From contig JAJRZK010000012.1 of NCBI GenBank assembly GCA_024275315.1, positions 1,869 to 65,868 on the forward strand: DNA of 64,000 nucleotides, read 5' to 3'. Source of the stretch: Nitrospirota bacterium (GTDB lineage: Bacteria; Nitrospinota_A; UBA7883). Under the pieces are notes generated by a model. It saw nothing but the letters and a program-made list of their open reading frames with translations. It did not search any database and had not been told where the DNA came from. The translations under genes and the position numbers were made by a program. This document shows positions 3,582-28,739 of the stretch, piece after piece (position 1 is the stretch's first letter; every line of letters begins with the position of its first letter).

Positions 3582-5879
3582 TTAGTCGGAGTTTTTCAGG
3601 TTGAAATATTCGCTGAGCTTTTTTTCTATCTCCCCGAGCAGAAATTTAAGCTCGACCACCTGTTCCCCGGCTTTTTCGATCGTTTTTTCCTCATCGGTAA
3701 GAGCCGCCACCTTCGCGCTGATGTCTTCGGCCATGACGTCGAGGTCTGCAAGTCTTTTTTCCGTGCGGGTGATGATGGTCATGCGGGAGGTAAGCTCGTC
3801 GATCTTCGATTCTCGTTCCTCGATCATTTCGTTGACACTGTTGATCCTGCCGATGATGTTTTTGAATCCTTCCTTGTCCTGCTCCATCTGCTGGCGGTAC
3901 GCGTGGACCTCCTGCATCACCGACCGAAGGCCCGCCACCTCTTCGGATGATTGCTTGATGTAGTCCTCCTTTTCCTTGAAAGCGATGATTTTTTCATCAA
4001 TGGAGCTGTGGAGAGAAGAGAGGAACGTGAGTTTTTTCTCTATTTCAGTGATACGGTCCTCCTGTTCCCTGATTCCGTTGATTCGTTTCTCCACATTTTC
4101 GATTTTCCGGTCGAGCTCGTCGTATCGCTTCACGATCATGTCGCTTTTTTCGGAGATGGAATCGGCCTTGGCGAGCTGGTCCTGTATCAGATCGAGAGCG
4201 GGGTTGATTTCTTTACGGATGTCGTTGATCTGTTCCAGCACCCGGTGGCCATGTTCTATGTCTTTTAGTTTTGTGTTTATTTTTTCTTCTGTCCTGGTGA
4301 TGGAGCCGAACAGCGAGTTGAGCCGCTCCTCGATGGCGTCTACCTCCGCCTTTTCCTTGGCGATGTCCAGTATTCTGTTATCCACCGATTGGGCCATCTG
4401 GCGGAAGCTTTCTATTTTCTTGTCCAGCTCCTCGACGAAGTTTACCTTTTTGGACAGCTTGTCTATCTTTATGTCCGCGTCTTCGATGAAATAGTTCAGG
4501 CCATCCAGTTTTTTCTCAAGTTTTTCGACCAGCCCTCTTCGTTCGAGCTGGCTTTCCATCTTCACATCGAGGTTGAGCACCATGTCGTTTATATCGTTAA
4601 TTTTCTTTTCAACCTGGTCCACCATGCCCTTGCGATGACCCAACTCCTCCATCCGTGCGGAGATGGCGTCTTGCATCTGCCGCATCTGGGAAAGCCGCGA
4701 CTCCACCTCGTCGGCTATTTTCAGGTCTTCTTTGAAGGTTTTTAGCTTCTTGTCTATTTCCTCGTGGGACTCGTAGAACTTGTCGATATTTTCCAGGGCG
4801 GAGTCTATCGACACCAGGTTGTCCTGGGCCATGCGCATCTTGGCTTCGATGGTTTCGCTTATAAAAATGTTGAGCTCGTTGACCTTCGCTTCGATCCGCT
4901 CGACATTGGATTTCTCTTCCGACAGACGGGCGATGTTTCCCTCTATATCGGAGGACAGCTTGTCCAGCTTTGCAAGCCTTTCAGTCAGCTCTTTTATCTG
5001 GCCTTCCTTGGATATGACATTTCGCGATTCTACTTTCAGTTCGTTAACGCTTTTCAAAAGCCCGGAAACCTCGGCCCTGGTTTCGGTCACCATCGCGCTC
5101 TGGTTGATCAGGTTTTCCATGGAGTCCTGCATCGACTGGATCATGTCGTGGCTGCGCCTGGCCTCGGAGGTGAGAGTCTCCACCGCACGCTTGTGAGCGC
5201 CGAGAGATTGCATCTTATCCTCGGTGTCGCGGAGCATCCTGGTGAACGATTCTGATTTTTCATCGGTTTCCGACATGAGCTTCTTGAATTGCGTTATGCT
5301 CTCCATCCTGTCGGATATCTTGTCGAGCATGCTTTCAAGCCGTAGTATGTTTTTTTCCGATTTTTTGACGAGCTTGTTTTCTTCGTGGAGTCTTTTAACC
5401 CGCGATTCCATATCCCAGAACAGGACGTTGAGCTTGCCCGCTTCTTCGTTGGCGCGTTCTACCAGCACCCGTTGGAGTGACAGGTTTTTTATCTTGGAGT
5501 TGATCCTTTCGACGAGCAGGTGGACAGAGTCGATGTCTTTTTTGTATTGATCGATCCGGCTGATCGCGTCTTCAGAACTGGCGCTGATCTCGTTTATGGA
5601 TTGGCCGATTTTTTTCAGTTCCGCTATTTCGTCGCTGATGCGGGAAGATTCCTCGCGCAGGCCGGGAAGTTTTTTTTCTATATCTTTGAACAACTCGACA
5701 TTGTTGGCGAGGGTCTCCTGGTTCTTGGTGAGATATTCGACGAGGAGTTGCATGCTTTTGCGCTCCTTGGCCGCCTCGGCGAGCATCTCCTTCATGTCGT
5801 CGATTTCCTTTTTGGAGTAGTCATGGCTCTCCTGGTTCGCTTGTTGCCTGTTGTCTTGCTTTTGCATGGGGTCGGCCAT
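3582..5879 (-). CDS. large coiled-coil protein, function unknown
   Basis: 765 aa, E/K/L/I/S-rich, and almost free of Pro/Gly for about 700 aa, with heptad-like periodicity. The many '+'-strand ORFs across 3540-5951 are antisense shadows of this low-complexity gene. Confidence 0.7.
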   Translation of the reverse strand: MADPMQKQDNRQQANQESHDYSKKEIDDMKEMLAEAAKERKSMQLLVEYLTKNQETLANNVELFKDIEKKLPGLREESSRISDEIAELKKIGQSINEISASSEDAISRIDQYKKDIDSVHLLVERINSKIKNLSLQRVLVERANEEAGKLNVLFWDMESRVKRLHEENKLVKKSEKNILRLESMLDKISDRMESITQFKKLMSETDEKSESFTRMLRDTEDKMQSLGAHKRAVETLTSEARRSHDMIQSMQDSMENLINQSAMVTETRAEVSGLLKSVNELKVESRNVISKEGQIKELTERLAKLDKLSSDIEGNIARLSEEKSNVERIEAKVNELNIFISETIEAKMRMAQDNLVSIDSALENIDKFYESHEEIDKKLKTFKEDLKIADEVESRLSQMRQMQDAISARMEELGHRKGMVDQVEKKINDINDMVLNLDVKMESQLERRGLVEKLEKKLDGLNYFIEDADIKIDKLSKKVNFVEELDKKIESFRQMAQSVDNRILDIAKEKAEVDAIEERLNSLFGSITRTEEKINTKLKDIEHGHRVLEQINDIRKEINPALDLIQDQLAKADSISEKSDMIVKRYDELDRKIENVEKRINGIREQEDRITEIEKKLTFLSSLHSSIDEKIIAFKEKEDYIKQSSEEVAGLRSVMQEVHAYRQQMEQDKEGFKNIIGRINSVNEMIEERESKIDELTSRMTIITRTEKRLADLDVMAEDISAKVAALTDEEKTIEKAGEQVVELKFLLGEIEKKLSEYFNLKNSD

Positions 5880-8953: not shown

Positions 8954-9742
8954 CTATATTTCCTCGGCGAATGTCTCTTTGCTTATGTCGAATCGGTAAA
9001 AACCGATCAGCGTGCAACAGACGCCCAGGGCGAAAATCAGGAGCATGGAAAACAGGTCCGGCGTTTTGGCGTAGATGAAAATGTCATGATAGCTCATCGT
9101 CAGCACAGCCATGGGATTAAGGTAGAAAGTGAACCGGTACGCTTCAGGGGTCACGGAGACCGGGTATATGATCGGGCACATGAAAAACCACAGGACGATG
9201 AAGTTGTTCAGGATATGCTGGATGTCCCGGAAGCGCACGTTTAGCGAGGAGAGAAAATAGACCAGCCCGGTGGTGAACAAAAGCTGGGCGAAAGCCACCA
9301 CCGGCAACCATAACAGCTTGGATGTAAACTCTATATCGAACCAGAGCATGAAGGCGAAAAGGAGGGGAAGGCTGAAAACGTAATTGGCCAGGTTCGACAA
9401 TATTTTCACCATCGGCAGGATTTCCGCCGGGAACATCGACTTTGTAATCAGCGCGCCGGACGCGGTTACCGAGTTCACCCCCTCCATCATCGAGGTGGAG
9501 AACCATATCCACGGCAACAGCCCCGTGAACATGAACACAGTATAGTTTTCCATCTCCATCCGCATGTATACCGAGAAAACCAGGGCGTAAACCAGAAGAA
9601 GTAACAGAGGATTCAGGAAAGTCCAGAGCATGCCGAGAGCGGAGCCGCGGTACCGGGCCTTGAGCTCTTTGGACACAAGGCTGATTACAAGCTCTCTGTA
9701 TCGCAAAAGCGTTTTGATGTTGTCGGTGAAGGAGCGGAGCAT
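8954..9742 (-). CDS. ABC-2 type (polysaccharide/teichoic-acid-export type) transporter permease
   Basis: 262 aa with 6 hydrophobic segments. The N-terminal motif L..EL+ARYRGS.LG..W..L.P is typical of Wzm/TagG/KpsM permeases. Confidence 0.8.
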   Translation of the reverse strand: MLRSFTDNIKTLLRYRELVISLVSKELKARYRGSALGMLWTFLNPLLLLLVYALVFSVYMRMEMENYTVFMFTGLLPWIWFSTSMMEGVNSVTASGALITKSMFPAEILPMVKILSNLANYVFSLPLLFAFMLWFDIEFTSKLLWLPVVAFAQLLFTTGLVYFLSSLNVRFRDIQHILNNFIVLWFFMCPIIYPVSVTPEAYRFTFYLNPMAVLTMSYHDIFIYAKTPDLFSMLLIFALGVCCTLIGFYRFDISKETFAEEI

Positions 9743-9874
9743 TACCCTGGGTTTTTAGCGGCGGACGCGCACAGATCCGGTTTTTGTTTTCATCGGGCGA
9801 TTATAGGCAATACCGGTCCGTCGATCAACAAATCCCGGGGGACCGGATTATGGCGCCCCTGATTTTCGCCCTGT

Positions 9875-10330
9875 CTATCCACCGATCAGGCTGGAATGCT
9901 CTATCTTCATGCATCGGTCCTGGACGACGGTGACACCCCCGTCACGCAGTCTGGCCGCGGCTTCGTTGTTGACTATCCCGAGTTGGAACCAGGCGCACGC
10001 CGGTTTACAGGCGAGAATATCGTCCACCATTTCGTTTATCGCTTCAGGCTTGCGAAAGATATCCACTACATCCACCCGCCCGGGGATATCGGCCGGGCTG
10101 TCGTACGCCTTCAACCCTTCCCATTGGGAGATGGCGGGGTTTACCGGGATAACATTGTAACCATGGTCATTAAGGTATCTCCCCACATCTCCCGACGCTC
10201 TGCCCGGTTTTTGTGAGACGCCGACTATGGCTATATTCTTTGATGTCTCTAAGATGGCCTTGATCTGTTCCGGTTCCGGGTTCTGGTCCGGGGCCGGAGG
10301 CCTGTTCGTTATGTCGCATGCTTCGGTCAT
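9875..10330 (-). CDS. CoA-binding domain protein (YccU-like)
   Basis: 151 aa. IAIVG.S....R.S..V..YL...GY.V.PVNP and later W.Q.G..N..A match the CoA_binding_2 pattern. Confidence 0.8.
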   Translation of the reverse strand: MTEACDITNRPPAPDQNPEPEQIKAILETSKNIAIVGVSQKPGRASGDVGRYLNDHGYNVIPVNPAISQWEGLKAYDSPADIPGRVDVVDIFRKPEAINEMVDDILACKPACAWFQLGIVNNEAAARLRDGGVTVVQDRCMKIEHSSLIGG

Positions 10331-10346: not shown

Positions 10347-10589
10347 TCAGGGGTTGCGGATTATTTTTTCTTTCAGGAACGCGTTGAGCTTGTCAGACAC
10401 ATCCGGCGGGATTTCGGGCGTTACATGTTTAACCCCCCCGAACAACTCGACGGTTCTTCTCAAGGTGTTGATAAACGCCACGCATGGCTCACAATCCTCG
10501 ATGTGCCTTTCGATCTCATCGCACAAGGATGGGTCTACTTCCTTGTCGATATACTCGCTTAGCTTTTCAAGTATTTCCTGGCATTTCAT
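10347..10589 (-). CDS. anti-sigma factor, zinc-finger (HxxxCxxC) type
   Basis: 80 aa with the H-x3-C-x2-C motif (RHIEDCEPC). It overlaps the upstream ECF sigma gene stop by 4 nt. Confidence 0.7.
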   Translation of the reverse strand: MKCQEILEKLSEYIDKEVDPSLCDEIERHIEDCEPCVAFINTLRRTVELFGGVKHVTPEIPPDVSDKLNAFLKEKIIRNP

Positions 10590-11242
10590 TTGACCGAACC
10601 TGTTTTGGTATGTTCTAAAGCTCCTTCGAAATAGACTGACAACTCGTCCCTTACAAAAATCCTGGCCCTGTGAAGCCGGGATTTTACCGCCGCCACGGTC
10701 ATGCCCATCATCTGGCTGATCTCGATATTGCTATACCCTTCCACGTCCTTGAGAATCAACACCGCGCGCTTGTCTTCCGGCAGTTTTGCGATGGTATTGT
10801 CCAAAACCATGCGGATTTCGTCGTTGCTGTATTGTAACGACGGATTTTTCGACCAGTCGACAATTTCCCTGGTGAGCTTGGATCCGTTGAATTCAATCGG
10901 TTTGTCTATGGAGACCGCGATCATTTTTTTTCGTTTTCTGAGCCTCATCAGACAGTTGTTGGTGGCTATTTTCAACAACCAGGTGGAAAACGCGGCCTCG
11001 CCCCTGAATTTATCCAGGGATTTGTGAACTTGCAAAAACGTTTCCTGCAATATATCCTCCGCGTCCTCTTTACTATTGAGGAACTTGAGGCCGTGACTGT
11101 ATACCCTGGCTTGGTATTTGCGGACAAGCTCCTCGAAAGCGCTGTAGTCGCCGTTTTTTATCCGAACGATCAGCGCTTCGTCTTTTTCCTTTTCAGAGAC
11201 GTGGCAGGCCGTCTGCTTGTCACTGCGTTGCGCTCCTGCCAT
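10586..11242 (-). CDS. ECF-family RNA polymerase sigma factor
   Basis: 218 aa with sigma70 region 2 (..ED..QETFLQV...L..F.G...F.TWL..IA.N) and region 4 (L.L.DVEG.S..EI...MG.....VKSRL.RAR). Confidence 0.9.
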   Translation of the reverse strand: MAGAQRSDKQTACHVSEKEKDEALIVRIKNGDYSAFEELVRKYQARVYSHGLKFLNSKEDAEDILQETFLQVHKSLDKFRGEAAFSTWLLKIATNNCLMRLRKRKKMIAVSIDKPIEFNGSKLTREIVDWSKNPSLQYSNDEIRMVLDNTIAKLPEDKRAVLILKDVEGYSNIEISQMMGMTVAAVKSRLHRARIFVRDELSVYFEGALEHTKTGSVK

Positions 11243-11455: not shown

Positions 11456-12610
11456 ATGAAGATGGACAGCAAACTGAAAATCCTGGTGGTCGACGACATG
11501 CCCAACATGCGCAAAACCATCAAGAACATGCTTCGTTCCATAGGATACACATCCGTTTCCGAAGCCTCGGATGGGGGGGAGGCGTTTGAGAAAATACAGT
11601 CCGGCAATTTCAATTTGGTTATCTCGGACTGGAACATGCCGGTGATGAACGGGATACAACTCCTGAAAAAGACCAGGCGGGATATCGACCTCAAATCGGT
11701 GCTGTTCATCATGGTGACCGCGGAAATAAGCGAAGAACAGATCGCCCACGCCGCCGAAACCGAAGTGGATGGATATATCATCAAGCCTTTCAACTCCACC
11801 ACGTTAAAGAAAAAGATCGAAAGCGTGCTGGAGCGACAGTCGAAGCCGTCGCCGATCGACGCGATTATAAACCTCAGCAGGGCCATGGTGGAATCGGGCG
11901 AACACGAAAAGGCGCTTGCCGCTCTTAAGCAGGCGCGGGTGCAGTTTCCGAAATCGGCGAGGTTGTTCGTCTCGATCGGCGAAACGCTGGAGGCCATGGG
12001 TAAGACGCACAGGGCGGTCGAGGCTTATGAACAGGCCAAAGACGTAAATCCCCAGTTTGTAAAAGCCTCCCAGAAGCTGGGGGAGCTTTATCTGAAAAAT
12101 AACGACACCAAAAGCGCAATGATCCACCTGGAAGAGGCGACAAAGATATCGCCTTATGATTCCCAAAGGCAATTGTCGCTGGGAAAACTCTATCTGGAGA
12201 ATGGAGAGGCCAACAAGGCGCGACAGGCGTTTAAGAACGCCCAGAAAACCGACGAGTCGGACACTGATATCCACAAGGAGATTGGCGAAGCGTATATGGA
12301 AGCGGGGATGGAAGAGTTCGCCGTTCAGGCGTTCAAGCGAGCCATTGATTCTGACCCGAGTATGATCCATCTGTATAATCGTCTCGGTATTGCGTTGAGG
12401 CGCAAAGGGAGATACCAGGAAGCGATAGAAGAATATATGCGCGCGCTGGAGGTGGCCCCTGACGACGAGGCGCTATACTTCAACCTGACCAAGGCGTACC
12501 TGGAGATGGGCAGGAAAAACGAGGCTAAAGAAACGATTCTCAAGGCGCTCCAGATAGACCAGGATTTCGAAGAGGCCAAGCAGTTGCTCGCCATTATCGA
12601 AAAGAAATAG
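11456..12610 (+). CDS. CheY-like response regulator receiver fused to TPR repeats
   Basis: Canonical receiver (ILVVDD...LVISDWNMPVMNG...KPF) followed by about 6 TPR-like A..Y..A...P motifs. Confidence 0.85.
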   Translation: MKMDSKLKILVVDDMPNMRKTIKNMLRSIGYTSVSEASDGGEAFEKIQSGNFNLVISDWNMPVMNGIQLLKKTRRDIDLKSVLFIMVTAEISEEQIAHAAETEVDGYIIKPFNSTTLKKKIESVLERQSKPSPIDAIINLSRAMVESGEHEKALAALKQARVQFPKSARLFVSIGETLEAMGKTHRAVEAYEQAKDVNPQFVKASQKLGELYLKNNDTKSAMIHLEEATKISPYDSQRQLSLGKLYLENGEANKARQAFKNAQKTDESDTDIHKEIGEAYMEAGMEEFAVQAFKRAIDSDPSMIHLYNRLGIALRRKGRYQEAIEEYMRALEVAPDDEALYFNLTKAYLEMGRKNEAKETILKALQIDQDFEEAKQLLAIIEKK

Positions 12611-12622
12611 CCCCTGGTTTCG

Positions 12623-13768
12623 CTATTCGTAGAATGATTTCATGTAATCCATGATAAGACCCGCCGCGCGGCTTGATCCGCCTGGTTCACCCAACGTCGC
12701 GGCTACTTTTCCCAGCTCTTTTCTCATCGATTTGCGCCTGGACGGATCATGCAGAAACGATAGCGCTGTTTTGGCGATGTTCGAGGGGGTCATCTCTCCC
12801 TGGATAAGCTCCGGGACAATCTCCTTTTGCGCCAGCAGGTTCGGCAACCCGGCCCATTTGACATGAGAGATGGATTTCGCGAGGAGGTAGGAGAACCAGT
12901 CCGACTTGTAAACGATCACCATGGGCGTGCCGGCTATGGTGGCCTGGAGCGTCGAGGTGCCCGACTTGCAAATGAGAAAATCGCACGCGTTGATTATCTC
13001 CCATGTCTTGCCGCTGACGACGGCCGCCTCTTCGCCCATATCACCGACGATACGTCTTACCAGCGCCGGGTCGATCGAATCCGCGCACGGGATCACCACC
13101 TTTACCGGCTTGGACGCTCGTATGATTTTTACGGCGTCTACCATGGCTGGAAGAATCCGGACCACCTCGCCGTTCCTGGAGCCGGGCATAAGGCCGAGCA
13201 TCGTATGGCGCCGGTCGATTCCCAGTTCTTCACGTATCGCGCCGGGGTCGGCCACCGGTGGCAATTCGTCGAGCAGGGGATGGCCGACGAAATGCGCCCT
13301 GACTCCGTTTTTTTCGTACAGCCTCTCCTCGAACGGGAATACGACGATCATCATGTCCACCAGCCTGCCTACAGACTTTATCCTGTATCTGCGCCACGCC
13401 CAGAACTGGGGGCACACATAATAAAAAACCGGGATGCCGGCGGCGTCGCAGGCCTTGGCGATACGCACATTGAAATCGGGATAATCTATGAGTATCGCCG
13501 CGTCATACTCCGATGCGGCTATCCTGCTCCTGAAATCGTCCAGCACGCCTTTTATAAACCGCAGTTTGCCAACCATGGACGCCACACCCACAGAGGAGAC
13601 TTTTGATATGTCGTAAAGGGTTGCGCCTCCCGCCCGACGCAACCGCTCGCCGCCGAGTCCCTCGATCCTGATGTCCGGCGCAAGTTTCAGGATGTGGCGG
13701 CATATCCTGCCGGCGTACAGGTCGCCCGATTCCTCGCCTGCCACTAAAAGAAGTTTTCTCTGTTTCAT
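12623..13768 (-). CDS. lpxB: lipid-A-disaccharide synthase
   Basis: 381 aa. LLVAGEESGDLYA..., YYV.PQ.WAWR..R, LPGSR..E and L.KSGT.TL are all LpxB hallmarks. Confidence 0.9.
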   Translation of the reverse strand: MKQRKLLLVAGEESGDLYAGRICRHILKLAPDIRIEGLGGERLRRAGGATLYDISKVSSVGVASMVGKLRFIKGVLDDFRSRIAASEYDAAILIDYPDFNVRIAKACDAAGIPVFYYVCPQFWAWRRYRIKSVGRLVDMMIVVFPFEERLYEKNGVRAHFVGHPLLDELPPVADPGAIREELGIDRRHTMLGLMPGSRNGEVVRILPAMVDAVKIIRASKPVKVVIPCADSIDPALVRRIVGDMGEEAAVVSGKTWEIINACDFLICKSGTSTLQATIAGTPMVIVYKSDWFSYLLAKSISHVKWAGLPNLLAQKEIVPELIQGEMTPSNIAKTALSFLHDPSRRKSMRKELGKVAATLGEPGGSSRAAGLIMDYMKSFYE

Positions 13769-13774
13769 TGCCGC

Positions 13775-14482
13775 CTAGCGCACGGAGAACAAAATTTGCC
13801 AGACCCGGACAACGGCTTCCAAAAATATCCTACGGGACATCTTCGATTTGCCGCCGGCCCTCTCGGTGAACACGATGGGTATCTCCCTGATCCTGAGGTT
13901 TTTCTTATAGGCCCGGTATGTCATCTCTATCTGAAACGAGTACCCTTCGGAATAGACGGAATCCAGGTCGATCGCTTCGAGCGTTTCGCGGCGGAAACAT
14001 TTGAACCCGCCGGTAAGGTCTCTTATGGGAACAGACAGGATTGTGCGGGCGTAAAAACTGCCGCCCATGGAGATCATCTTGCGCAGGAACGACCAGTTTT
14101 CCACTCCTCCTCCATCGACATAGCGCGAGCCTATGACCAGGTCCGCGTCCTCGATGGCTTCCAGAAACCGGGGAAGGTATTCCGGGTTGTGGGAAAAATC
14201 GGCGTCCATTTCGAAAATATAGTCGAAATCCTTTTCCAGCGCGTATCTAAAGCCTGAAATATAGGCTGTGCCCAGGCCCAGTTTCCCCGACCTCTTTAAC
14301 AGGTGCAACCGGCTGTTGCTGTGCATGAGCCGCTCCACAACGGCTCCGGTGCCGTCGGGAGAGTTGTCGTCGACCACCAGAATGGACGTATCCGGCAGAT
14401 GAGAGCCGATCAGTCCGATCAGTCTTTCTATATTTTCGACCTCGTTGTAGGTCGGGATGATAACCAGGCTCTTGGAATTCAT
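13775..14482 (-). CDS. GT2 polyprenol-phosphate mannose/glucose synthase (Dpm1-like)
   Basis: The N-terminus SLVIIPTYNE..NI, then VVDDNSPDGT and DADFSH. I prefer ATG at complement(14480..14482) over the TTG at 14515 used by the track. Confidence 0.85.
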   Translation of the reverse strand: MNSKSLVIIPTYNEVENIERLIGLIGSHLPDTSILVVDDNSPDGTGAVVERLMHSNSRLHLLKRSGKLGLGTAYISGFRYALEKDFDYIFEMDADFSHNPEYLPRFLEAIEDADLVIGSRYVDGGGVENWSFLRKMISMGGSFYARTILSVPIRDLTGGFKCFRRETLEAIDLDSVYSEGYSFQIEMTYRAYKKNLRIREIPIVFTERAGGKSKMSRRIFLEAVVRVWQILFSVR

Positions 14483-14769
14483 AGTTGGGCATTCTAATGG
14501 ATGGGGTTTGTGCAAGTAAAGGACAGCTTCGGTCCCGGGACCAAAAAGGCTGGTTTGGTTGATTACTTACCATGATTGTTACGGTCCGGGACAGGCGGTT
14601 AACCGGCTCTGATTTTTCCCGGATTTCCAGTTAAAACAAATAACAGCTTGATTTACTTTAATATTTACTCAAGTTTTGATAGGAAAGTGACGAAAATTAC
14701 TATATAACTAAACATACTTTGGCGGTAATGTGTGGAAATCGTGTGGTTATTTCCATATATTTGGTTAAA

Positions 14770-15402
14770 ATGAACCATATTTTACAGCAGGTCCCTATGG
14801 TTTACCGGGCTCTTTTTCGATCTACCTTGGTTTTGGCTCTTCTCTTTCTTTCCGCCTGTGTTGTCATGCCTGTAAAAGACGAAGGCGCGGTGAGGAATGC
14901 GATTGAAAAAATAGACGAGCAAATACAGGTGATCGCCATAGAGCTGAGCCATCGCATGAGGGAGTTCGATCCAAACAACAAATCCCTTGCGGTGACCACT
15001 TTTGTCGATCTGGACAACTTGTCCGAATCATCGTCTTTCGGCAGGTTTCTTGGCGAACAGCTATCGACCGAGTTGCACAAGCTCGGTTTCAACATAAGAG
15101 AGTTGCGGCAGCGAAAAACCATAGAAATCGTTCAGGACAAGGGCGAATTCGCGCTGACCAGGGAAGCGTCGGAGCTTATGAAGAAGTTCCAGGTAGACGC
15201 TGTCCTGGCCGGAACATACATGGTTGTCGGAGACGAGGTGGTCGTAAACGCGCGGGTTATAGATGTGGATTCGTCCCGGGTCATATCTGTCGGCCAGATG
15301 ATCACAAACCTCAGGGGGCTGGATCAGATCCGGGCGCTTCTGTCCCGAAGGTCACGTGGGTCGACTCCCATAGTAAAAGTTGTCAATCCTGAAAAGAGTT
15401 AG
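14770..15402 (+). CDS. FlgO-like domain lipoprotein (1 domain)
   Basis: Lipobox LFLSAC. Domain sequence: SLAVTTFVDLDNLSESSSFGRFLGEQLSTELHKLGFNIRELR...GEFALTRE...FQVDAVLAGTY...VVNARVIDV. An alternative start is ATG 14797. The family call is from memory of FlgO-family sequences and has not been searched. Confidence 0.6.
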   Translation: MNHILQQVPMVYRALFRSTLVLALLFLSACVVMPVKDEGAVRNAIEKIDEQIQVIAIELSHRMREFDPNNKSLAVTTFVDLDNLSESSSFGRFLGEQLSTELHKLGFNIRELRQRKTIEIVQDKGEFALTREASELMKKFQVDAVLAGTYMVVGDEVVVNARVIDVDSSRVISVGQMITNLRGLDQIRALLSRRSRGSTPIVKVVNPEKS

Positions 15403-15409
15403 GCGCGTT

Positions 15410-16603
15410 ATGAAAATCAGCATGGTGGTTTTTTTGTCAGTCATGATTATTTCGATCGCTGGTTGCGTCCGGTATCAAAAAGAGCCGGGGTTTCAAAGCG
15501 AGCTTGCAAGAGACCAGTACAGCCGATCGGCTTATGGTTATCATCCGGATAACTGGATTCCATACCATGAGCGGTATACGCAACGGTTCAAATGGAAGAT
15601 GCAGTATATCGCAAAACAGCTCGGGTCAAAGATGCTGACTCCTGAATCAAACGGTTCCACCGTGCTGATGACCACCATCGTGCCGGCGGACAACCTGTAC
15701 AAGGCCACCAGCTTCGGCAGGTTGTGCACGGAACAGCTTATCACCGAGCTGTCCAAACAGGGGTTCAAGGTTATAGAGGCCAGAAAAACGGATGTTTTTC
15801 TCATTCGTGACAACGAGGGGGAGTTTTCCCTGTCAAGGGACGCATACTGGCTCTCCCGGGAGTTCAAGGCGGATGCGGTGCTGGTGGGGGTCTATTCCAA
15901 ATCGGGGGGGCAGGCGCTGGTAAACGTCCGGCTGGTGGATAGCCGGGATTCTCATATACTCGGAACGGCCAGCGCTCATATGAATCTCAAGGGCGACAGG
16001 TTTCTTAATGAAATATTCCTCAAGGAGGCGAACGCGTCCAATACCGGAGGGGGGGGCTCGGGCGAGATGCGTATCAGAAAAAAGGTGGATGTCGAAAAGG
16101 ATTCTCACGCCGAGGTGCTCGAGTACAAGCTGGGGAACATGGCTGGTGAAATAAAGGAGACTTCGGAGAAAAAAATAGGAAATGTGAAAACCATCGCCGT
16201 AACCACGTTCGTCGATGTGGACAACTTCTACCGGGCAACGACTTTCGGACGGTACATGACGGAGCAGCTCATGTACGAGCTTTACGAACTGGGGTATAAC
16301 GTTCTTGAAATACGTAATGCGCCTGATCTTTTCGTCGATCTGAGAATCGGGGAACTGGGGTTGAGCCGCGAGATGAGCCAGATCATGAGGAATCAAAAGG
16401 CGGACGCTGTTGTGGTGGGCACGTATACCAAGGGGGGGGATAGCATAGCGGTCAACTCCCGCCTGGTGATAGGAAAAACCCAGGAGGTTATCGGTATCGG
16501 CCAGATCATCGTTGATAGCAGTCCCAGAAACAAGTTCGTGACGGCTATGCTGAAAAACGAGGTTACAACGGTTATGCCAACAGAAATGGTCGAAGGGTTT
16601 TAG
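15410..16603 (+). CDS. FlgO-like domain lipoprotein (2 tandem domains)
   Basis: Signal peptide MKISMVVFLSVMIISIAGC (lipobox). There are two copies of the same module (...TSFGRLCTEQLITELSKQGFKVIEAR...GEFSLSRD...ADAVLVGVY and ...TTFGRYMTEQLMYELYELGYNVLEIR...GELGLSRE...ADAVVVGTY). The ATG lies 7 nt after the upstream stop. Confidence 0.6.
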   Translation: MKISMVVFLSVMIISIAGCVRYQKEPGFQSELARDQYSRSAYGYHPDNWIPYHERYTQRFKWKMQYIAKQLGSKMLTPESNGSTVLMTTIVPADNLYKATSFGRLCTEQLITELSKQGFKVIEARKTDVFLIRDNEGEFSLSRDAYWLSREFKADAVLVGVYSKSGGQALVNVRLVDSRDSHILGTASAHMNLKGDRFLNEIFLKEANASNTGGGGSGEMRIRKKVDVEKDSHAEVLEYKLGNMAGEIKETSEKKIGNVKTIAVTTFVDVDNFYRATTFGRYMTEQLMYELYELGYNVLEIRNAPDLFVDLRIGELGLSREMSQIMRNQKADAVVVGTYTKGGDSIAVNSRLVIGKTQEVIGIGQIIVDSSPRNKFVTAMLKNEVTTVMPTEMVEGF

Positions 16604-16605
16604 TT

Positions 16606-17055
16606 GCGATGTTCAACGAAAACAAGCTTCGTACATCGTCGCAAACGCCAGACACGGTTGACGGTTCGCGTGGTTCTATGGTGATGTTCAACGAAAACAC
16701 GCTTCGTACATCGTCGCAAACGCCAGACACGGCTGACGGTTCGCGTGGTTCTATGGTGATGTTCAACGAAAACACGCTTCGTACATTGTCGCAAACGCCA
16801 GACGCCGCTGACGGTTCGAGTGGTTCTATGGTGATGTTCAACGAAAACACGCTTCGTACATCGTCGCAAACGCCAGACGCCGCTGATGGTTCGCGTGGTT
16901 CTATGGTGATGTTCAACGAAAACACGCTTCGTACATCGTCGCAAACGCCAGACACGGCTGATGGTTCGCGTGGTTCTATGGTGATGTTCAACGAAAACAC
17001 GCTTCGTACATTGTCGCAAACGCCAGACACGGCTGATGGTTCGCGTGGTTCTATG
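16606..17055. repeat. 75-bp tandem repeat, 6 complete copies (plus a degenerate start of a 7th at 17056-17070)
   Basis: Unit boundaries are 16606, 16681, 16756, 16831, 16906 and 16981. Only six variable columns differ among the copies. The array is open in three frames (track ORFs 16609..17085 +, 16572..17132 -, 16600..17235 -). Confidence 0.95.
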
Positions 17056-17077
17056 GCAATGCTCGAAAGGTCCGATC

Positions 17078-17614
17078 GTGTATAGGTATTTGCTTTGGGT
17101 GATGGTAGCCGGGTCTGTTCTGGCGGTTTCATGCGTCACTCCCACAAACATGGGACCGCACAACTCCGACCAGTTCGGGGCCGGGTATATGGTAAGCATA
17201 ATCCGTGACCAGCTCCGGCATCCGGAGGTTCTCAATCAGCCGATTATCGTGACTACTTTCGTTGACCTGAACAACCTCGACAAATCGTCGATCTTTGGCC
17301 GGGTGCTGGCGGAGGAGCTGTTAAACGAGCTTCACCAGGCCGGGTTTACCGTGTCGGAAATAAGAAAAGGCAGGGACATCTTCATCCGCAAAGAACTGGG
17401 GGAGATGATTCTTTCGCGTAACGCCAGGGAGATATTGGGCAAGTCGAGCGCCCGCGCGATCCTGGCGGGCACATACGTGGCCACGGCGAAAACGATAATC
17501 ATCAACGCAAGGTTGATAGACATAAACAGTCCGCTGATACTTTCGTCGTGTTCCTACTCCTTGAAAATGAACAAGGAGCTTCAGAACATGATAACCGGCG
17601 AGTCGCCTTTTTAG
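17078..17614 (+). CDS. FlgO-like domain lipoprotein (1 domain)
   Basis: GTG 17078 is preceded by GAAAGG (17065-17070). The signal peptide (V)YRYLLWVMVAGSVLAVSC has a lipobox. Domain sequence: IIVTTFVDLNNLDKSSIFGRVLAEELLNELHQAGFTVSEIR...GEMILSRN...ARAILAGTY...IINARLIDI. Confidence 0.6.
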   Translation: MYRYLLWVMVAGSVLAVSCVTPTNMGPHNSDQFGAGYMVSIIRDQLRHPEVLNQPIIVTTFVDLNNLDKSSIFGRVLAEELLNELHQAGFTVSEIRKGRDIFIRKELGEMILSRNAREILGKSSARAILAGTYVATAKTIIINARLIDINSPLILSSCSYSLKMNKELQNMITGESPF

Positions 17615-17626
17615 GAGCGTCATACA

Positions 17627-18103
17627 ATGAGGAAAAGGTTACTTTTTCTGATCATCATCGCCACCGCGGTCGGGTTTGCGCCGGTACAGGCGTCTGCCAA
17701 GAAGGGGGCCAATATCATAAGTTCGCCCGACGTTCCTACCGCGTCGGGACCGGTTACTGCAGGGGGCGCGAAAGTCCCCAAGGGTATGGGGCCTGACACC
17801 GTGGAGAGCGAAAAGGCGGTCATCACCACGACTCCCATGCCACTGGTCATACGTAAAGTGACGGTGCTGATAGAGTCGACGCCCACCAATTCCGGCATCG
17901 AGGTCAACGGTGTTTATATCGGGACCACACCTTTGCAGGTAACCCTGAAAGAGGGGGTGCATCACATGAAGGTGCGAAAAGAGGGGTATTTGCCCTGGGT
18001 GCGGACTGTCAAGGCGTATAACGGGCTATATGTCAGCGCAGACCTGGTCAAGGAATCCACCATCAAACGGGACGTCACGCAAAGCGCCACGGCCACCCAA
18101 TAG
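17627..18103 (+). CDS. secreted PEGA-domain protein
   Basis: Signal peptide MRKRLLFLIIIATAVGFAPVQASA. The C-terminal I.STP..(A/S)GI.VNG.Y.G.TPL...L.EG.H...V.KEGY..W fits the PEGA pattern. Confidence 0.75.
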   Translation: MRKRLLFLIIIATAVGFAPVQASAKKGANIISSPDVPTASGPVTAGGAKVPKGMGPDTVESEKAVITTTPMPLVIRKVTVLIESTPTNSGIEVNGVYIGTTPLQVTLKEGVHHMKVRKEGYLPWVRTVKAYNGLYVSADLVKESTIKRDVTQSATATQ

Positions 18104-23662: not shown

Positions 23663-25921
23663 ATGAATGAAATAAAAAACGACCTGGTCACCAAGTTAAT
23701 CAAGCAAATCCGCGCCGGAGACAATCTTTCCTCCATCCTGCCGAAGGTAAAGGACTCCATATTACAGGCCCTTGGCGCACAGGGGTTTATTGTGTACGAG
23801 CGTAAAAGCTCAGGCGAGGCCATAGTATCCATTTTCGCCACCGCCTCTGTCAGCGGCGACACCCGAATACCGCTGTCGACTCACTCCATACCGGGGATCG
23901 TAGCCCTGGCGCAAAAGCCGCTGGCGATAAAAGACGTTCACAACGCCGATACCCTGACGAAAATTCACCATAACCTCAAGTACGACGCCTCCTTCGAAAA
24001 AGGGGCGGGGTTGAAAATCAAATCCATGCTGGCCGCCCCGATCAAGCCTGGGGCCGTGACTCTCGGCGTCATGCAGGTGTTCAACAAAAAAGGGGGCGGC
24101 GTGTTCAGCAAGCAGGACATGCAGGTCGCCACCGCGATAGGCGAGGCCATCGGGGAGAAATTCCAGGTCGAGTTGAAGGCGACCAAGGCCCCGTACGAGC
24201 ACCTGATCCAGACAGGCAGGCTTACGGCCATGGATCTGGAAAAATACGAGAGGAGCGCGAGGAAAACCGGTGTGTCCGTACCCAGCATACTGATGAAAAG
24301 CGCGGGGATTTCGATAGAAGAGATCGGAATATCTCTGGAGCGGTTTTACCTGACCCCCTTCATGGCGTATGACACGTATGTGCGCATACCCGGCGAGCTG
24401 GTGGAAAACATAAAAAACAGCTATATGATTTCCAATTGCTGGGTGCCCGTCTCCGGCGATCGGGACAAGGCGTTTGTGTTGATAGACGACCCGACGGATA
24501 TTCACCGGGTGATGGAGGTGGAGAGCCTGCTGGGCGCCAAGCACCTGACTTTCATGGTGGGAGTGCCGGAGGATATCGTCCGCTATATAGAGCGCTCTCC
24601 CCGGTCGGAGCCTGGTGAGAAACGGGGACCATCTGTCATCCTGGAGGACGATGCGTCTGTTGGTGAAAAAACCGGCGCAGGGGTTATGACGATAGGAAAA
24701 CAGGCGGCGGATAAAAAAGAGAGTGACGATGTCGGAAAAGACGTCATCCAACTGGTCGACAAGATCATCGCGCTTGGATTGAAATCGGGCGCGTCGGACA
24801 TCCATTTGCAAACGGCCAAAGGGGGGGCGGACTGTATCGTGCGGTTCCGCATTGACGGGGCGTGCCGTCAGGCCATGAAGATTCCGTCGGACAAGGCCAG
24901 GTCTGTTGTGGCGAGAATCAAGATCATGGCCAAGCTCGATATCTCGGAACGGAGAAAACCGCAGGACGGGAAATGTTATTCAACCGTCAACGATAAATCC
25001 CTGGAGTTGCGCGTGGCCACCGTGCCGACCGTCAACGGGGAAAACGTGGTGCTCCGGATCCTTACGTCCAGCAAGCCTCTGCCCATCGCGAAACTGAACA
25101 TGTCCAACAGGAATATGAAAGAGACGATCAACATAGTGTCCCACCCGCACGGGATATTCCTGGTGGTGGGACCCACAGGTAGCGGCAAAACCACGACGTT
25201 ACACGCTGTTCTGGGCCATATCAATACGCCGGAACGGGTCATATGGACAGCGGAGGATCCGGTGGAAATCACCCAGGAGGGGCTCAACCAGGTGCAGACG
25301 CATTCTAAAATCGGGCTCAATTTCGCCTCTGCGCTCCGGTCTTTTTTACGGGCCGATCCGGATGTGATCATGATCGGCGAGATGCGGGACAATGAGACCG
25401 CCCAAATCGCCGTCGAAGCTTCGCTTACAGGTCACCTGGTCATGTCCACGCTGCACACCAACTCCGCCGCCGACACCATCATCCGTCTTCTGGACTTTGG
25501 AATAGACCCCATAAACTTTTCCGATGCGCTTTTGGGCATTCTCGCCCAGCGTCTCGTCCGCACCCTTTGCCCGAAATGCAAAAAGTCGTATGACGCGAAC
25601 CAGGAAGAGTACCAGTTGTTGCGCAAATATTATGGCGACGAGCATTTTGACGAGCTTGGGGTGAAAAACGAAGGCCTGAGGCTGTATGTGTCCTCCGGTT
25701 GCGAAGAGTGCGGCGGGACGGGCTACAAGGGCCGCACCGGGTTGCACGAGCTTCTTGTGGCGACGCCGGAGATCAAGAATCTGATATACAAAAGAGCCAG
25801 TGTGTCGCAGATCCGTGATCTTTCCGTCAGCCAGGGGATGCGCACTATCATGCAGGATGGCATATTAAAGGTGATAAAAGGGCAGACAGATATAACGCAG
25901 GTTCGCAAGGTGGCTGTATAG
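23663..25921 (+). CDS. GspE/PilB-family secretion ATPase with N-terminal GAF-like domain
   Basis: 752 aa. Walker A GPTGSGKTTT, Asp box, Walker B (VIMIGEMRD), His box (TGHLV.STLHTN) and the tetracysteine CPKC...CEECGGTGYKGRTG. The N-terminal ~170 aa resemble GAF (..A.PI......GV.QV.NK). Confidence 0.85.
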   Translation: MNEIKNDLVTKLIKQIRAGDNLSSILPKVKDSILQALGAQGFIVYERKSSGEAIVSIFATASVSGDTRIPLSTHSIPGIVALAQKPLAIKDVHNADTLTKIHHNLKYDASFEKGAGLKIKSMLAAPIKPGAVTLGVMQVFNKKGGGVFSKQDMQVATAIGEAIGEKFQVELKATKAPYEHLIQTGRLTAMDLEKYERSARKTGVSVPSILMKSAGISIEEIGISLERFYLTPFMAYDTYVRIPGELVENIKNSYMISNCWVPVSGDRDKAFVLIDDPTDIHRVMEVESLLGAKHLTFMVGVPEDIVRYIERSPRSEPGEKRGPSVILEDDASVGEKTGAGVMTIGKQAADKKESDDVGKDVIQLVDKIIALGLKSGASDIHLQTAKGGADCIVRFRIDGACRQAMKIPSDKARSVVARIKIMAKLDISERRKPQDGKCYSTVNDKSLELRVATVPTVNGENVVLRILTSSKPLPIAKLNMSNRNMKETINIVSHPHGIFLVVGPTGSGKTTTLHAVLGHINTPERVIWTAEDPVEITQEGLNQVQTHSKIGLNFASALRSFLRADPDVIMIGEMRDNETAQIAVEASLTGHLVMSTLHTNSAADTIIRLLDFGIDPINFSDALLGILAQRLVRTLCPKCKKSYDANQEEYQLLRKYYGDEHFDELGVKNEGLRLYVSSGCEECGGTGYKGRTGLHELLVATPEIKNLIYKRASVSQIRDLSVSQGMRTIMQDGILKVIKGQTDITQVRKVAV

Positions 25922-26065
25922 CGCCAAAAGCTCCGGAGCCAGCGTGATAATCGGCCGAAAGCCGGGCGGGGCGCGGATCGGCCGGAGGTGTTATAAAAAC
26001 AGGCCCTCGCATAGCGGCCTTGGTTTTCGTAATTTAATATGGGCGTTAACTCGATAGGAGGCCAG

Positions 26066-26467
26066 ATGGCTACAAAAGTTATGGTCGTCGATGATTCGAT
26101 GATGATGAGAAAAATGATCAAGGATATTATCAGCAGTCACCCTGATATTGAACTGGTGGGCGACGCGCCCAACGGCGAGGTGGCGCTGGAAAAGGCCAAG
26201 GAGATGAAACCGGACGTTGTCCTGCTCGACATCGAAATGCCGGTTATGGACGGGATCGAGTTTCTCAAACATTACAAGCTTATCGGTTCCGGTAAAGTGG
26301 TTGTGCTGTCGTCGGTCGCCCAGGCGGGGTCGTCTTCGGCTATGGAGGCGCGTCAACTCGGGGCGGTGGATATCATACCTAAACCTTCCGGCGGCATCAG
26401 CCTTGATCTGGAACAGAAAAAGGGGCATGAGATAATAAAGGCGATTTTTAAAGCAGCCGGTATGTGA
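26066..26467 (+). CDS. stand-alone receiver protein, CheB-N-terminal type
   Basis: MATKVMVVDDSMMMRKMIKDII...VGDAPNGEVALEKAKEMKPDVVLLDIEMPVMDGIEFL...AVDIIPKP. AGGAG Shine-Dalgarno at 26056-26060. No methylesterase domain follows. Confidence 0.85.
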   Translation: MATKVMVVDDSMMMRKMIKDIISSHPDIELVGDAPNGEVALEKAKEMKPDVVLLDIEMPVMDGIEFLKHYKLIGSGKVVVLSSVAQAGSSSAMEARQLGAVDIIPKPSGGISLDLEQKKGHEIIKAIFKAAGM

Positions 26468-26557
26468 CACCAATCGGTGCGTAACACCAGCCGGTGGTGA
26501 CATCACCACGCCCGGCGTCGTTTTTCGTGGATAATAAGGGGGCGGGGGTGTTCATCC

Positions 26558-26653
26558 TGTGTCGTGGGCACGATGTGTCATGGACACTGTGTGTCACGGA
26601 CACTGTGTGTCACGGACACTGTGTGTCATGGATACTGTGTGTCGCCGGGCCAG
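26558..26653. repeat. 16-bp tandem repeat, 4 good and 2 degenerate copies (tgtgtcacggacactg), built from alternating GTGTC/GACAC half-sites
   Basis: Units start at 26558 (degenerate), 26574, 26590, 26606, 26622 and 26638 (degenerate). The array lies in the spacer between the two receiver paralogs. Confidence 0.9.
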
Positions 26654-26685
26654 TGCAAGACAATAATAATCAACAGGAGATAAAA

Positions 26686-27084
26686 GTGGCAACGAAGGTT
26701 CTGATAATTGACGACTCGATGATGATGCGTAAAATCATCAAGGATATCGTGACTAGCGATCCTGATCTGGTCGTCGTAGGCGACGCCAGCAACGGTGAGC
26801 AGGGCCTGCAAAAGACGAAAGAGCTCCAACCCGACGTTGTTCTGCTTGACATAGAGATGCCGGTTATGGACGGGATCGAGTTTATGAAAATGTTCAAGCT
26901 GGTCAGTAGCGCCAAGGTGATTGTGTTGTCCAAGCTTGCGCAGGCGGGGGCGCAAACCTCGTTTGACGCGCGCCGGCTTGGGGCTGTGGATGTCATCGCA
27001 AAACCCTCGGGAGCCGTCAGCCTCGACCTGGAAAACAAGAAAGCTCACGAAATAGTCAACGCTATCCGCAAGGCGGTCGCCTGA
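26686..27084 (+). CDS. stand-alone receiver protein, CheB-N-terminal type (paralog of 26066..26467)
   Basis: GTG 26686 preceded by AGGAGA (26675-26680). The product (V)ATKVLIIDDSMMMRKIIKDIV...DVVLLDIEMPVMDGIEFM...AVDVIAKP is roughly two-thirds identical to the upstream paralog by eye. Confidence 0.8.
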   Translation: MATKVLIIDDSMMMRKIIKDIVTSDPDLVVVGDASNGEQGLQKTKELQPDVVLLDIEMPVMDGIEFMKMFKLVSSAKVIVLSKLAQAGAQTSFDARRLGAVDVIAKPSGAVSLDLENKKAHEIVNAIRKAVA

Positions 27085-27176
27085 GCGGCTGGCATGAATC
27101 ATGATCCTGTTCGTGGCCATGAGGAGCGAAACACGCAGAGCCGCCGAATCCACCCGTAAACATTTCCGGTCGTTTC

Positions 27177-28739
27177 ATGGATGATCTTGTTGACAAACTC
27201 TGGATTCATTTTGCAGAGGAAACCCGGAGCCACCTGTCCAACCTTGAATCCCTGCTCGCCGATCCCGCCGCCGACACAGAAAACATCAACCAGCTTTTTC
27301 GCGGTATGCACTCTGTCAAGGGGCTGGCCAGGGCCATGGATATGCGGTCGATGGAGGATATCGCGTATGGCTGCGAAAATATCCTCGGACTGATAAGGGA
27401 AGGCAAGGCCGGGCTTGAAACTTCGATCGTGGAACTGCTTGCAAGCGCGGTGACGGAGCTCAAACGGCTGAGGGAAATAGCCGTCAGCCAACACGAAAAC
27501 TCCGCGCCTGAGCATGATCTGCTGGAGCGTATCGCTAGGGAGTTTGTCGCGATGGCGGGCCAGGTCGAAGAGCCGGAAGAAAAGGAACCCGAAAACAGGC
27601 GTAAACGAAAAAGGCGTATTCACGATGACCAGGGCCTGCTCGATTTTTTCGCTTCGATAACCAAGGATTATATACCCGTGCTGACAAACGTGCTCGACCC
27701 AGGCTACGAAGGGAACGGGCGGGAGGCCGACAGAATATCGGGGGCGCTCCATGGGATGCAACAGGCGAGCGAGGGGATCTCGTTTTTCAGAATGATGGAA
27801 AATGTAGGGCGGATGGAAGAGGTCATTCCCTCGTCCGGGCCGTTGGACCAGGATTCGAAAACAAAGCTGGTCAACCTATTTATAGAGCTGAAATCGATGA
27901 TCAACCATATCGAGACCGAGGGAGAGGTGGACGCGGGAAGCGGGGATTTCTCCCCCGTGGTGGAGAGCATGGTTCGAGACATGCTGGACGAAAAATTCTA
28001 CGAGACGCTTGTGTTGCTCGATCATCTGGAAAAACAGGGGCAAGACGCGCATATGGAGGAGGGCAACCTGCTGGCTTGTGAAAGAATCTCCGTCTTGGCC
28101 AAATCGATCAAGGATTGCATGGGGTTCGTTCTGCCGGCCCCGGGCAGTTTTGTCATGCCTGTGCTGGAGGATGTCTATAACAGGATCGGCAGGGGCGAGC
28201 TTCCTGTCAACCGCGAGTTTATAGGGTTGTCCAGAGAAGCCGTGACGCTGGAGAAATCGCTGGCTGAAAGCCCCGATCCGAACAAGCTTAGCGACAGCGA
28301 GGAGACGATCAAAAACCTGCTGGAAAGAATAAACGAAAACATATTCCAGTTTGACCATCAACACAGCGTGAAGATTGAAGAGTCCATGGCCAGGGACCTG
28401 CTGTCCGAGGTTCATATCAAGCAGGAGCTCAGGGACGTGATCGCCCCGGAGAACATGAAAGACCTGTTAGAAGCGCTGGGCAAGGGATGGAACGTCTTCG
28501 AGATAACGACGCACCTCGAATCCTCCGAGGAGGTGGCGGTGGCTTTTTCCGACTGGGCGCAGAACCGGGCGAAGGTAATTACAAACAGGACGATGATTAT
28601 CGACGATGAAAGCTGGTTCGAGTTTTTGGTGGTGACCGAATCCCCGCCCGAAGTTGTCATAAAGGAAATTTCCGATATTGATCCGGAAGGGCTTCTTTTG
28701 CAGGCCCGCCAGTGCCCCAGAGCCGAAAGTTCCCGCTAG
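27177..28739 (+). CDS. HPt (histidine phosphotransfer) domain protein without kinase core
   Basis: The N-terminal CheA-P1-like HPt is F.EE...HL..LE..L.......INQLFRGMHSVKGLARAM. The remaining ~400 aa are unrecognised, with no H-box/N/G1/G2 kinase motifs. Confidence 0.7.
   Translation: MDDLVDKLWIHFAEETRSHLSNLESLLADPAADTENINQLFRGMHSVKGLARAMDMRSMEDIAYGCENILGLIREGKAGLETSIVELLASAVTELKRLREIAVSQHENSAPEHDLLERIAREFVAMAGQVEEPEEKEPENRRKRKRRIHDDQGLLDFFASITKDYIPVLTNVLDPGYEGNGREADRISGALHGMQQASEGISFFRMMENVGRMEEVIPSSGPLDQDSKTKLVNLFIELKSMINHIETEGEVDAGSGDFSPVVESMVRDMLDEKFYETLVLLDHLEKQGQDAHMEEGNLLACERISVLAKSIKDCMGFVLPAPGSFVMPVLEDVYNRIGRGELPVNREFIGLSREAVTLEKSLAESPDPNKLSDSEETIKNLLERINENIFQFDHQHSVKIEESMARDLLSEVHIKQELRDVIAPENMKDLLEALGKGWNVFEITTHLESSEEVAVAFSDWAQNRAKVITNRTMIIDDESWFEFLVVTESPPEVVIKEISDIDPEGLLLQARQCPRAESSR

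Follow-up and report, generated by a model that had tools for sequence, protein, structure and literature searches.

Whether an outer-membrane scaffold built from FlgO modules belongs to the flagellum is the main question raised by a locus at positions 14770-18103 (forward strand) of a 64,000-nucleotide stretch, hereafter the window, of contig JAJRZK010000012.1 from Nitrospirota bacterium (GTDB lineage Nitrospinota_A). The locus consists of four consecutive open reading frames (ORFs), namely three genes for putative FlgO-domain lipoproteins (g1, g2 and g3) and then a gene for a PEGA-domain protein (g4), and its four FlgO modules are split 1+2+1 across g1, g2 and g3. The reading that we favour, at slightly less than even confidence, is that the four genes form one operon for a hetero-oligomeric scaffold anchored in the outer membrane, independent of flagellar gene clusters and possibly tied to outer-membrane or lipid A biogenesis. 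The genes of this cassette are as follows:

14797-15402, forward strand: g1, predicted lipoprotein with one FlgO module at about 14932-15300 (Pfam E-value 5.7e-36)
15410-16603, forward strand: g2, predicted lipoprotein with two FlgO modules at about 15608-15985 and about 16130-16528 (Pfam 8.7e-61)
17078-17614, forward strand: g3, predicted lipoprotein with one FlgO module at about 17213-17575 and the lipobox LAVSC (Pfam 6.2e-35)
17627-18103, forward strand: g4, predicted secreted periplasmic protein with a PEGA domain at about 17861-18046 (Pfam 5.4e-15)

A first-pass annotation, made from the letters of the DNA alone, had named the FlgO family and had described the 1+2+1 layout, the lipoprotein signals, the PEGA partner and the intergenic gaps of 7 nt (g1-g2) and 12 nt (g3-g4), with a repeat array between g2 and g3; the ORFs, the Pfam matches and the lipoboxes bore out each of these points. 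The Pfam FlgO family (PF17680) matched g1, g2 and g3 with 123.7, 203.9 and 120.3 bits, far above the curated cut-off of 22.6 and in two separate stretches of g2, and PEGA (PF08308) matched residues 79-140 of g4 with 55.5 bits against a cut-off of 20.8. When the modules were compared with the five families that the annotation had considered (FlgO, LpoB, TolB_N, CsgG and PEGA), only FlgO and PEGA were found: neither LpoB nor CsgG matched the cassette proteins in Pfam even at E<=0.1, and TolB_N (PF04052) remained below threshold in g2 module 2, where it covered residues 327-353 only (18.7 bits against a cut-off of 22.4). No NCBIfam model matched any of the four cassette proteins. Pairwise identity among the four modules is 30-38% over ~135 aa in a nearly gap-free alignment. 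The module motif proposed at first pass is a fair if loose consensus of them, but it fails in two places, since g2 module 1 reads MTTIVPADN rather than VTTFVD and g3 has ARAIL rather than ADAVL.

The lipoboxes of g1, g2 and g3 (LFLSAC, SIAGC and LAVSC, respectively) have a cysteine that is conserved in orthologues, and lipidation is predicted for all three proteins from these motifs; none of the three has Asp at position +2 after the cysteine. For g1, in which the lipobox cysteine is invariant in 12 orthologues, the start at ATG 14797, giving MVYRALFRSTLVLALLFLSAC, was preferred to the alternative ATG at 14770. A 17-sequence alignment of g2 revealed a conserved N-terminal motif, EPxFQ..W.P..YTQRF.WKM, and a conserved C-terminal tail, ..ETVEG[FY]. 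The g3 ORF opens at ATG 17036, inside the last repeat of the array, and its start is probably GTG 17078, which is preceded at 7 nt by a Shine-Dalgarno-like GAAAGG both in the window and in L001, a 93% identical relative. This gene encodes the most conserved subunit, with a mean column identity of 68% over 12 orthologues and an invariant C-terminal GE[SP]PF. The g4 protein is built from a type-I signal peptide (..VQASA/KK), a low-complexity linker of very variable length among orthologues, and a GGGA motif and PEGA domain that are both kept. In the JGI gene calls of L001, the starts of the g1 and g3 orthologues (9457-9993 and 11474-11986) fall downstream of or inside the signal peptide, and the called g1 product has no lipobox; automated annotation would therefore miss the lipoprotein nature of these genes.

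The AF2 model of g2 had a pLDDT of 66 overall and contained two alpha/beta cores at pLDDT 70-85. Its Foldseek neighbours were GNA1162, the LpoB C-domain, the TolB N-domain and an H. pylori lipoprotein, and the FlgO module, as modelled, has an alpha/beta fold of the TolB-N/LpoB class. Two-domain Foldseek matches to GlmM and KaiC were spurious (TM score <=0.25).

Comparison of all modules extracted from 11 genomes revealed that a module and its nearest neighbour in another genome shared their positional class without exception (44/44). Modules of one class were 47-67% identical and modules of different classes 28-34%, irrespective of whether the two came from the same genome. These nearest-neighbour relations and identities indicate that the duplications predate the divergence of the lineages and that each copy has been kept. 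Judged by sequence relationship, the four module classes are orthologous, ancient paralogues at fixed positions, and this class orthology would in turn indicate non-redundant subunits of one assembly.

Relatives of the cassette were collected from a scan of 185,579 species genomes, with a custom module hidden Markov model and from Pfam-annotated contigs. The g2 homologues comprise about 50 proteins of ~395 aa with two FlgO domains each, and those that are named carry the labels Nitrospinae/Nitrospinota, 'Nitrospirae' or hydrothermal-vent metagenome bins. The order FlgO / 2xFlgO / FlgO / PEGA was found in about 15 distinct loci, mostly of Nitrospinota metagenome-assembled genomes. The complete cassette in identical order is present in L001, L002, L005, L007-L013, L045 and L053-L057, the exceptions being L046, which has no g1, and L006, which ends at the contig edge after g3. 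Spacing of the cassette genes ranges from -4 to +63 nt, save for single g1-g2 gaps of 153 and 299 nt (L013/L045 and L054, respectively), and the flanks vary, with at least six different contexts around the cassette. The four-gene set is a conserved unit, independent of its flanks, and every one of the 13 g4 homologues found comes from this same cassette.

A global search of 1.84 billion representative proteins returned 1,408 FlgO-domain matches, only 8 of them at E<=1e-30, and the full-length two-module proteins among these representatives make up three or four clusters from Nitrospinota and one distant clade, at 33% identity. L057, a member of that distant clade, again has the order FlgO / 2xFlgO / FlgO / PEGA between unrelated flanks, with lipoboxes and C-terminal tails kept. 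The FlgO family itself is known; what is new is the arrangement of four positions in three genes, the tandem-FlgO protein, the obligate PEGA partner, the global rarity, and the co-inheritance of the set as a mobile cassette, both in genomes of the Nitrospinota type and in a lineage further away.

The first-pass annotation had taken the function of such loci to be undescribed, in agreement with our literature search, which found FlgO-domain proteins in flagellar work only and no mention of the FlgO domain, PF17680 or an FlgO-like protein outside it; the PEGA literature gave no functional lead for g4. The closest characterised counterpart is FlgO of Vibrio cholerae. The profile of g2 module 2 matches the FlgO domain-containing chains of PDB 9yds/9yfg, which hold 58 FlgO copies each, at 3e-17. 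In the Vibrio H-ring, this lipoprotein is anchored via Cys16, and its C58 ring is concentric with that of FlgP, which FlgO touches with its second beta-sheet and C-terminal loop (10.64898/2025.12.02.691832), and Vibrio without an H-ring have flagella trapped in the periplasm (10.1101/358820). The cassette proteins share with FlgO of V. cholerae and V. alginolyticus the PF17680 family, an N-terminal lipobox and, by prediction, outer-membrane anchoring, and the functional C-terminal loop of Vibrio FlgO has a parallel in their conserved C-terminal tails. In Vibrio, however, a single one-module FlgO is encoded beside flgP and flgT among flagellar genes, whereas the four paralogous modules of the cassette are distributed over three genes, of which g2 is a tandem fusion; a PEGA protein accompanies them, and FlgP and FlgT are lacking. 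No flagellar family was found among the larger ORFs scanned in the 64-kb window or inside any cassette read.

In Thermodesulfobacteriota, Desulfurivibrio and magnetotactic Nitrospirota (L015-L042, L043), single-module FlgO lipoprotein genes stand in rows of two or three, and behind them comes another small gene without a family, which has a lipobox in both representatives read. Unlike the cassette, these clusters have no two-module gene and no PEGA protein; their companions are FapA upstream and a 210-240 aa gene without a family downstream, and their identity to the cassette is 27-45% in the best aligned segment. Multi-FlgO lipoprotein clusters are widespread and undescribed. In L015-L022 and L026 (for example L021 3112-7851), the order is FapA (PF03961), a small secreted protein, three single-module FlgO lipoproteins and a lipoprotein of 210-240 aa without a family; in Desulfurivibrio alkaliphilus (L043 7633-10162), two FlgO genes stand between two genes without a family.

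Since the sole characterised relative forms a 58-subunit outer-membrane ring, a hetero-oligomeric outer-membrane scaffold is the best mechanistic reading of the cassette. In such a scaffold, g1, g2 and g3 would be exported, would receive their lipid at the lipobox cysteine and would then reach the outer membrane by sorting, each bringing one or two FlgO modules of the TolB-N/LpoB alpha/beta fold. The modules may pack laterally into large rings, arcs or a lattice, as V. cholerae FlgO does, and the C-terminal tails of g2 (VEG[FY]) and g3 (GE[SP]PF) may dock onto neighbouring subunits or link rings. The partner that faces the periplasm would be g4, the soluble protein with the PEGA beta-domain, and the whole scaffold would hang from the inner face of the outer membrane.

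The first-pass annotation had placed lpxB and a polyprenol-phosphate-type glycosyltransferase next to the cassette, and NCBIfam supported both identifications, lpxB scoring over its equivalog cut-off and the glycosyltransferase best resembling that type:

12623-13768, reverse strand: lpxB, lipid-A-disaccharide synthase (NCBIfam TIGR00215, 263 bits against an equivalog cut-off of 190)
13775-14482, could extend to 14515, reverse strand: family-2 glycosyltransferase (GT2), polyprenyl-phosphate type by NCBIfam resemblance
14483-14796, between the divergent genes GT2 and g1: intergenic region, presumed promoter region

The best NCBIfam matches of GT2 were AglJ, PpgS, dolichyl-P hexose transferase and ArnC, every one below its equivalog cut-off, and the L001 orthologue carries Pfam PF00535. 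Beyond lpxB, further upstream, lie a gene for a response regulator with TPR repeats, genes for an extracytoplasmic function (ECF) sigma factor and a small zinc-binding anti-sigma factor, a Wzm-like ABC-2 permease gene, fabZ and a FabI-like reductase gene, and recG lies downstream of the cassette. Sigma-70-like sites at 14676-14703 and 14733-14761 upstream of g1 are no more than chance gives. A crude consensus scan upstream of g1 found no sigma-28 or sigma-54 consensus in the window and 13 related loci, and no conserved ECF consensus. Pfam scans of the window, covering the ~40 larger ORFs only, about a dozen ORFs remaining without a match, found no flagellar, MCP-signal/methyl-accepting or motor family, consistent with the first-pass statement that these 64 kb hold no flagellar genes.

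The step from that statement to a non-flagellar locus, which the first-pass annotation had also taken, exceeds the evidence, as the lack of flagellar genes in one window is a weak argument and findings from cassette-bearing relatives and from the Nitrospinae core genome speak against it. A non-flagellar role is nevertheless favoured by that lack and by the wider comparison: the cassette lies inside a flagellar operon in none of the nine Pfam-annotated contexts, and lpxB is its most frequent neighbour, standing directly upstream and divergent in 10 of 14 distinct loci, usually with GT2, while fabZ, the FabI-like gene and the Wzm-like permease gene lie upstream. In the four loci without lpxB, DUF1615, a GGDEF protein, SMC or an epimerase is found at that place instead.

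The strongest alternative is a flagellar one: the four genes would specify an accessory ring or disk in the outer membrane at the flagellar motor of Nitrospinota, comparable to the Vibrio H-ring or the Campylobacter basal disk but more elaborate. Its four FlgO positions would form concentric rings, and the PEGA protein would replace FlgP/FlgT-type partners. We consider this a serious possibility, though clearly short of probable. Besides the H-ring role of the only characterised FlgO and its match to g2 module 2, it draws on the core genome of Nitrospina/Nitromaritima, which reportedly encodes flagellar assembly and chemotaxis (PMC5029188), and on several loci of relatives. In L053 (50% identity), a Flg_bbr_C-type rod gene (139 aa, flgB/C-like) and fliE (15651-16389) lie 3.2-4.4 kb downstream of the PEGA gene, past four unrelated genes, with a 325-aa sigma-70 family gene between; in L002, a MotB_plug/OmpA gene and a PilZ gene lie ~9 kb upstream of the cassette. 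The related Thermodesulfobacteriota 3xFlgO clusters stand directly behind the FapA-family gene, and one single-FlgO relative is ~1 kb from a flagellin gene. The adjacency in L053, however, is missing from its close relative L055. The zero count among the nine annotated contexts, the lack of a FlgP or FlgT partner in the cassette or the window, and the lack of a sigma-28 or sigma-54 consensus upstream of g1 likewise argue against a flagellar disk, as does the finding that cultured Nitrospina is the named source of no full-length g2 homologue among the 49, though those genomes carry flagellar genes.

The scaffold independent of flagellar gene clusters, which remains our preferred reading, faces difficulties of its own. 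The oligomer is proposed by analogy, only single chains having been modelled; the g2 model is mediocre, and the structure prediction of g4 from its 13 homologues is unusable (pLDDT 41). The sole experimentally characterised FlgO is flagellar, and the flagellar genes of L053 and the MotB-like gene of L002 lie near the cassette. The adjacency of lpxB may simply have been inherited as synteny, with no functional link, because the block conserves RecG and the response-regulator/TPR gene as well and lpxB is missing from four loci. The promoter test, moreover, was the crude consensus scan described above.

It is improbable that the lipoproteins are LpoB-like regulators that act singly and reach peptidoglycan synthases or hydrolases. 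LpoB, an activator of the penicillin-binding protein (PBP) PBP1B, is likewise an outer-membrane lipoprotein of the same alpha/beta fold (Foldseek 4q6l, 4q6z and 2mii), and its C-domain is among the best structural matches (4q6l, 4q6z; TM score 0.56-0.63 on the target); all three cassette lipoproteins, moreover, are predicted to be outer-membrane lipoproteins with linkers after the cysteine. At the sequence level, however, LpoB is unmatched in Pfam at the E<=0.1 limit given above, against 1e-35 for FlgO, and LpoB is a monomer with a long disordered linker and no multi-paralogue cassette, whereas four fixed paralogous modules and a PEGA protein co-inherited as a cassette suit an assembly better. 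A PBP gene is conserved as a neighbour in no locus examined. The other structural neighbours, the GNA1162/DUF799 lipoprotein of Neisseria (PDB 4hrv) and the TolB N-domain, resemble the FlgO module at fold level only; TolB, unlike the cassette proteins, has a beta-propeller and is a soluble component of Tol-Pal.

PelC and CsgG are oligomeric export lipoprotein rings that share a TolB-N-like fold. That the cassette would likewise form a periplasmic ring guiding polymer or protein export across the outer membrane is the least probable reading of all, for although this fold class is common to oligomeric export lipoproteins and a glycosyltransferase and a Wzm-like ABC-2 permease are encoded nearby, no outer-membrane channel, polysaccharide synthase or secretin is conserved beside the cassette, CsgG gave no Pfam match, and PelC and CsgG are absent from the top 50 Foldseek matches (no separate search with a PelC model was made).

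The g2-g3 junction, which measures only 0-27 nt in the other relatives read, is occupied in the window by the following element:

16608-17056, no strand assigned: 75-bp tandem repeat array (Tandem Repeats Finder, 6.0 copies, 96% matches)

The corresponding junction of L001 (11199-11399) contains 2.6 copies of a 78-bp unit, and the two arrays share the blocks GATGTTCAAC and CATCGTCGCAAACGCCAGAC, with one 16-nt block wholly different. Because of these shared blocks and the short junction of the other relatives, the array is taken as a recent, lineage-specific insertion evolving in concert, and it has broken the tight g2-g3 coupling seen in those relatives. An ORF through the array (16609-17085) is open in both the window and L001, the periods of 75 and 78 both being multiples of 3; it begins 5 nt past the g2 stop, ends in GTGTATAG and overlaps the probable g3 start. 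In codon usage it scores -0.05 per codon, where real genes score +0.22 to +0.44, and its GC1/2/3 values are 0.49/0.53/0.53, against 0.56/0.39/0.67 in genes. The minus-strand frame of the array is open too, the repeat copies differ from each other mostly non-synonymously, and the gene caller left the ORF uncalled in L001; on these grounds coding was judged unlikely. A fusion of g2, array and g3 by read-through was rejected, as g2 and g3 share a frame yet every repeat unit has a TGA in it. A structured RNA was rejected as well, with no Rfam match and folds worse than those of shuffled sequences on both strands (z +3.4 and +1.5), and so was a dispersed repeat family, the 19-mer core giving only six single chance matches in metagenome contigs. 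The array is probably a non-coding minisatellite, at most incidentally translated.

Several further observations concern the surroundings. The ECF sigma factor and zinc-binding anti-sigma factor (80 aa, no transmembrane segment) are encoded at 10347-11242 on the reverse strand and are also present in L001. L007 and the otherwise non-syntenic L002 (16638-17632) likewise have an ECF sigma gene no more than a few kb from the cassette, and in L002 a 143-aa gene without a family stands beside it. From this proximity, the ECF sigma factor near the cassette is a possible regulator. Elsewhere in the window, a 1350-aa ORF at 39437-43489 (reverse strand) has an N-terminal ParA/MinD-type ATPase (AAA_31/CbiA, residues ~49-241), its other ~1100 residues being without a family. 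At 23663-28739 (forward strand), a 752-aa T2SSE-type ATPase with N-terminal GAF and MshEN domains is followed by a response-regulator receiver protein and a 520-aa Hpt-only protein, a group suggestive of an ATPase module for a pilus or for secretion under signalling control. A 765-aa ORF at 3582-5879 (reverse strand), conserved in L001, has weak coiled-coil-type matches (DUF948, BLOC1_2) below cut-off. Rfam returned one tRNA as the sole match over the window.

FlgO has been understood structurally only since 2025, as the lipidated 58-subunit ring of the Vibrio H-ring. In the cassette the same module occurs four times, each copy at a fixed position of its own and inherited together with the others and a new PEGA partner, and the phylum has no member in culture and open to genetics in which the cassette is present. 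Its practical importance is modest, since it is a lineage-restricted structural system. If the scaffold is flagellar, a new and elaborate outer-membrane disk is predicted in Nitrospinota motors; if it is not, ring-forming FlgO modules extend into general envelope architecture. The boldest form of the latter, that the FlgO paralogues and the PEGA protein build a previously unseen large ring or lattice in Nitrospinota-type bacteria, independent of the flagellum and linked through the lpxB neighbourhood to lipid A and outer-membrane biogenesis, is in our judgement rather doubtful. Were it true, the ring-forming FlgO module, which the flagellar H-ring alone has so far been known to contain, would serve generally in the construction of periplasmic outer-membrane scaffolds.

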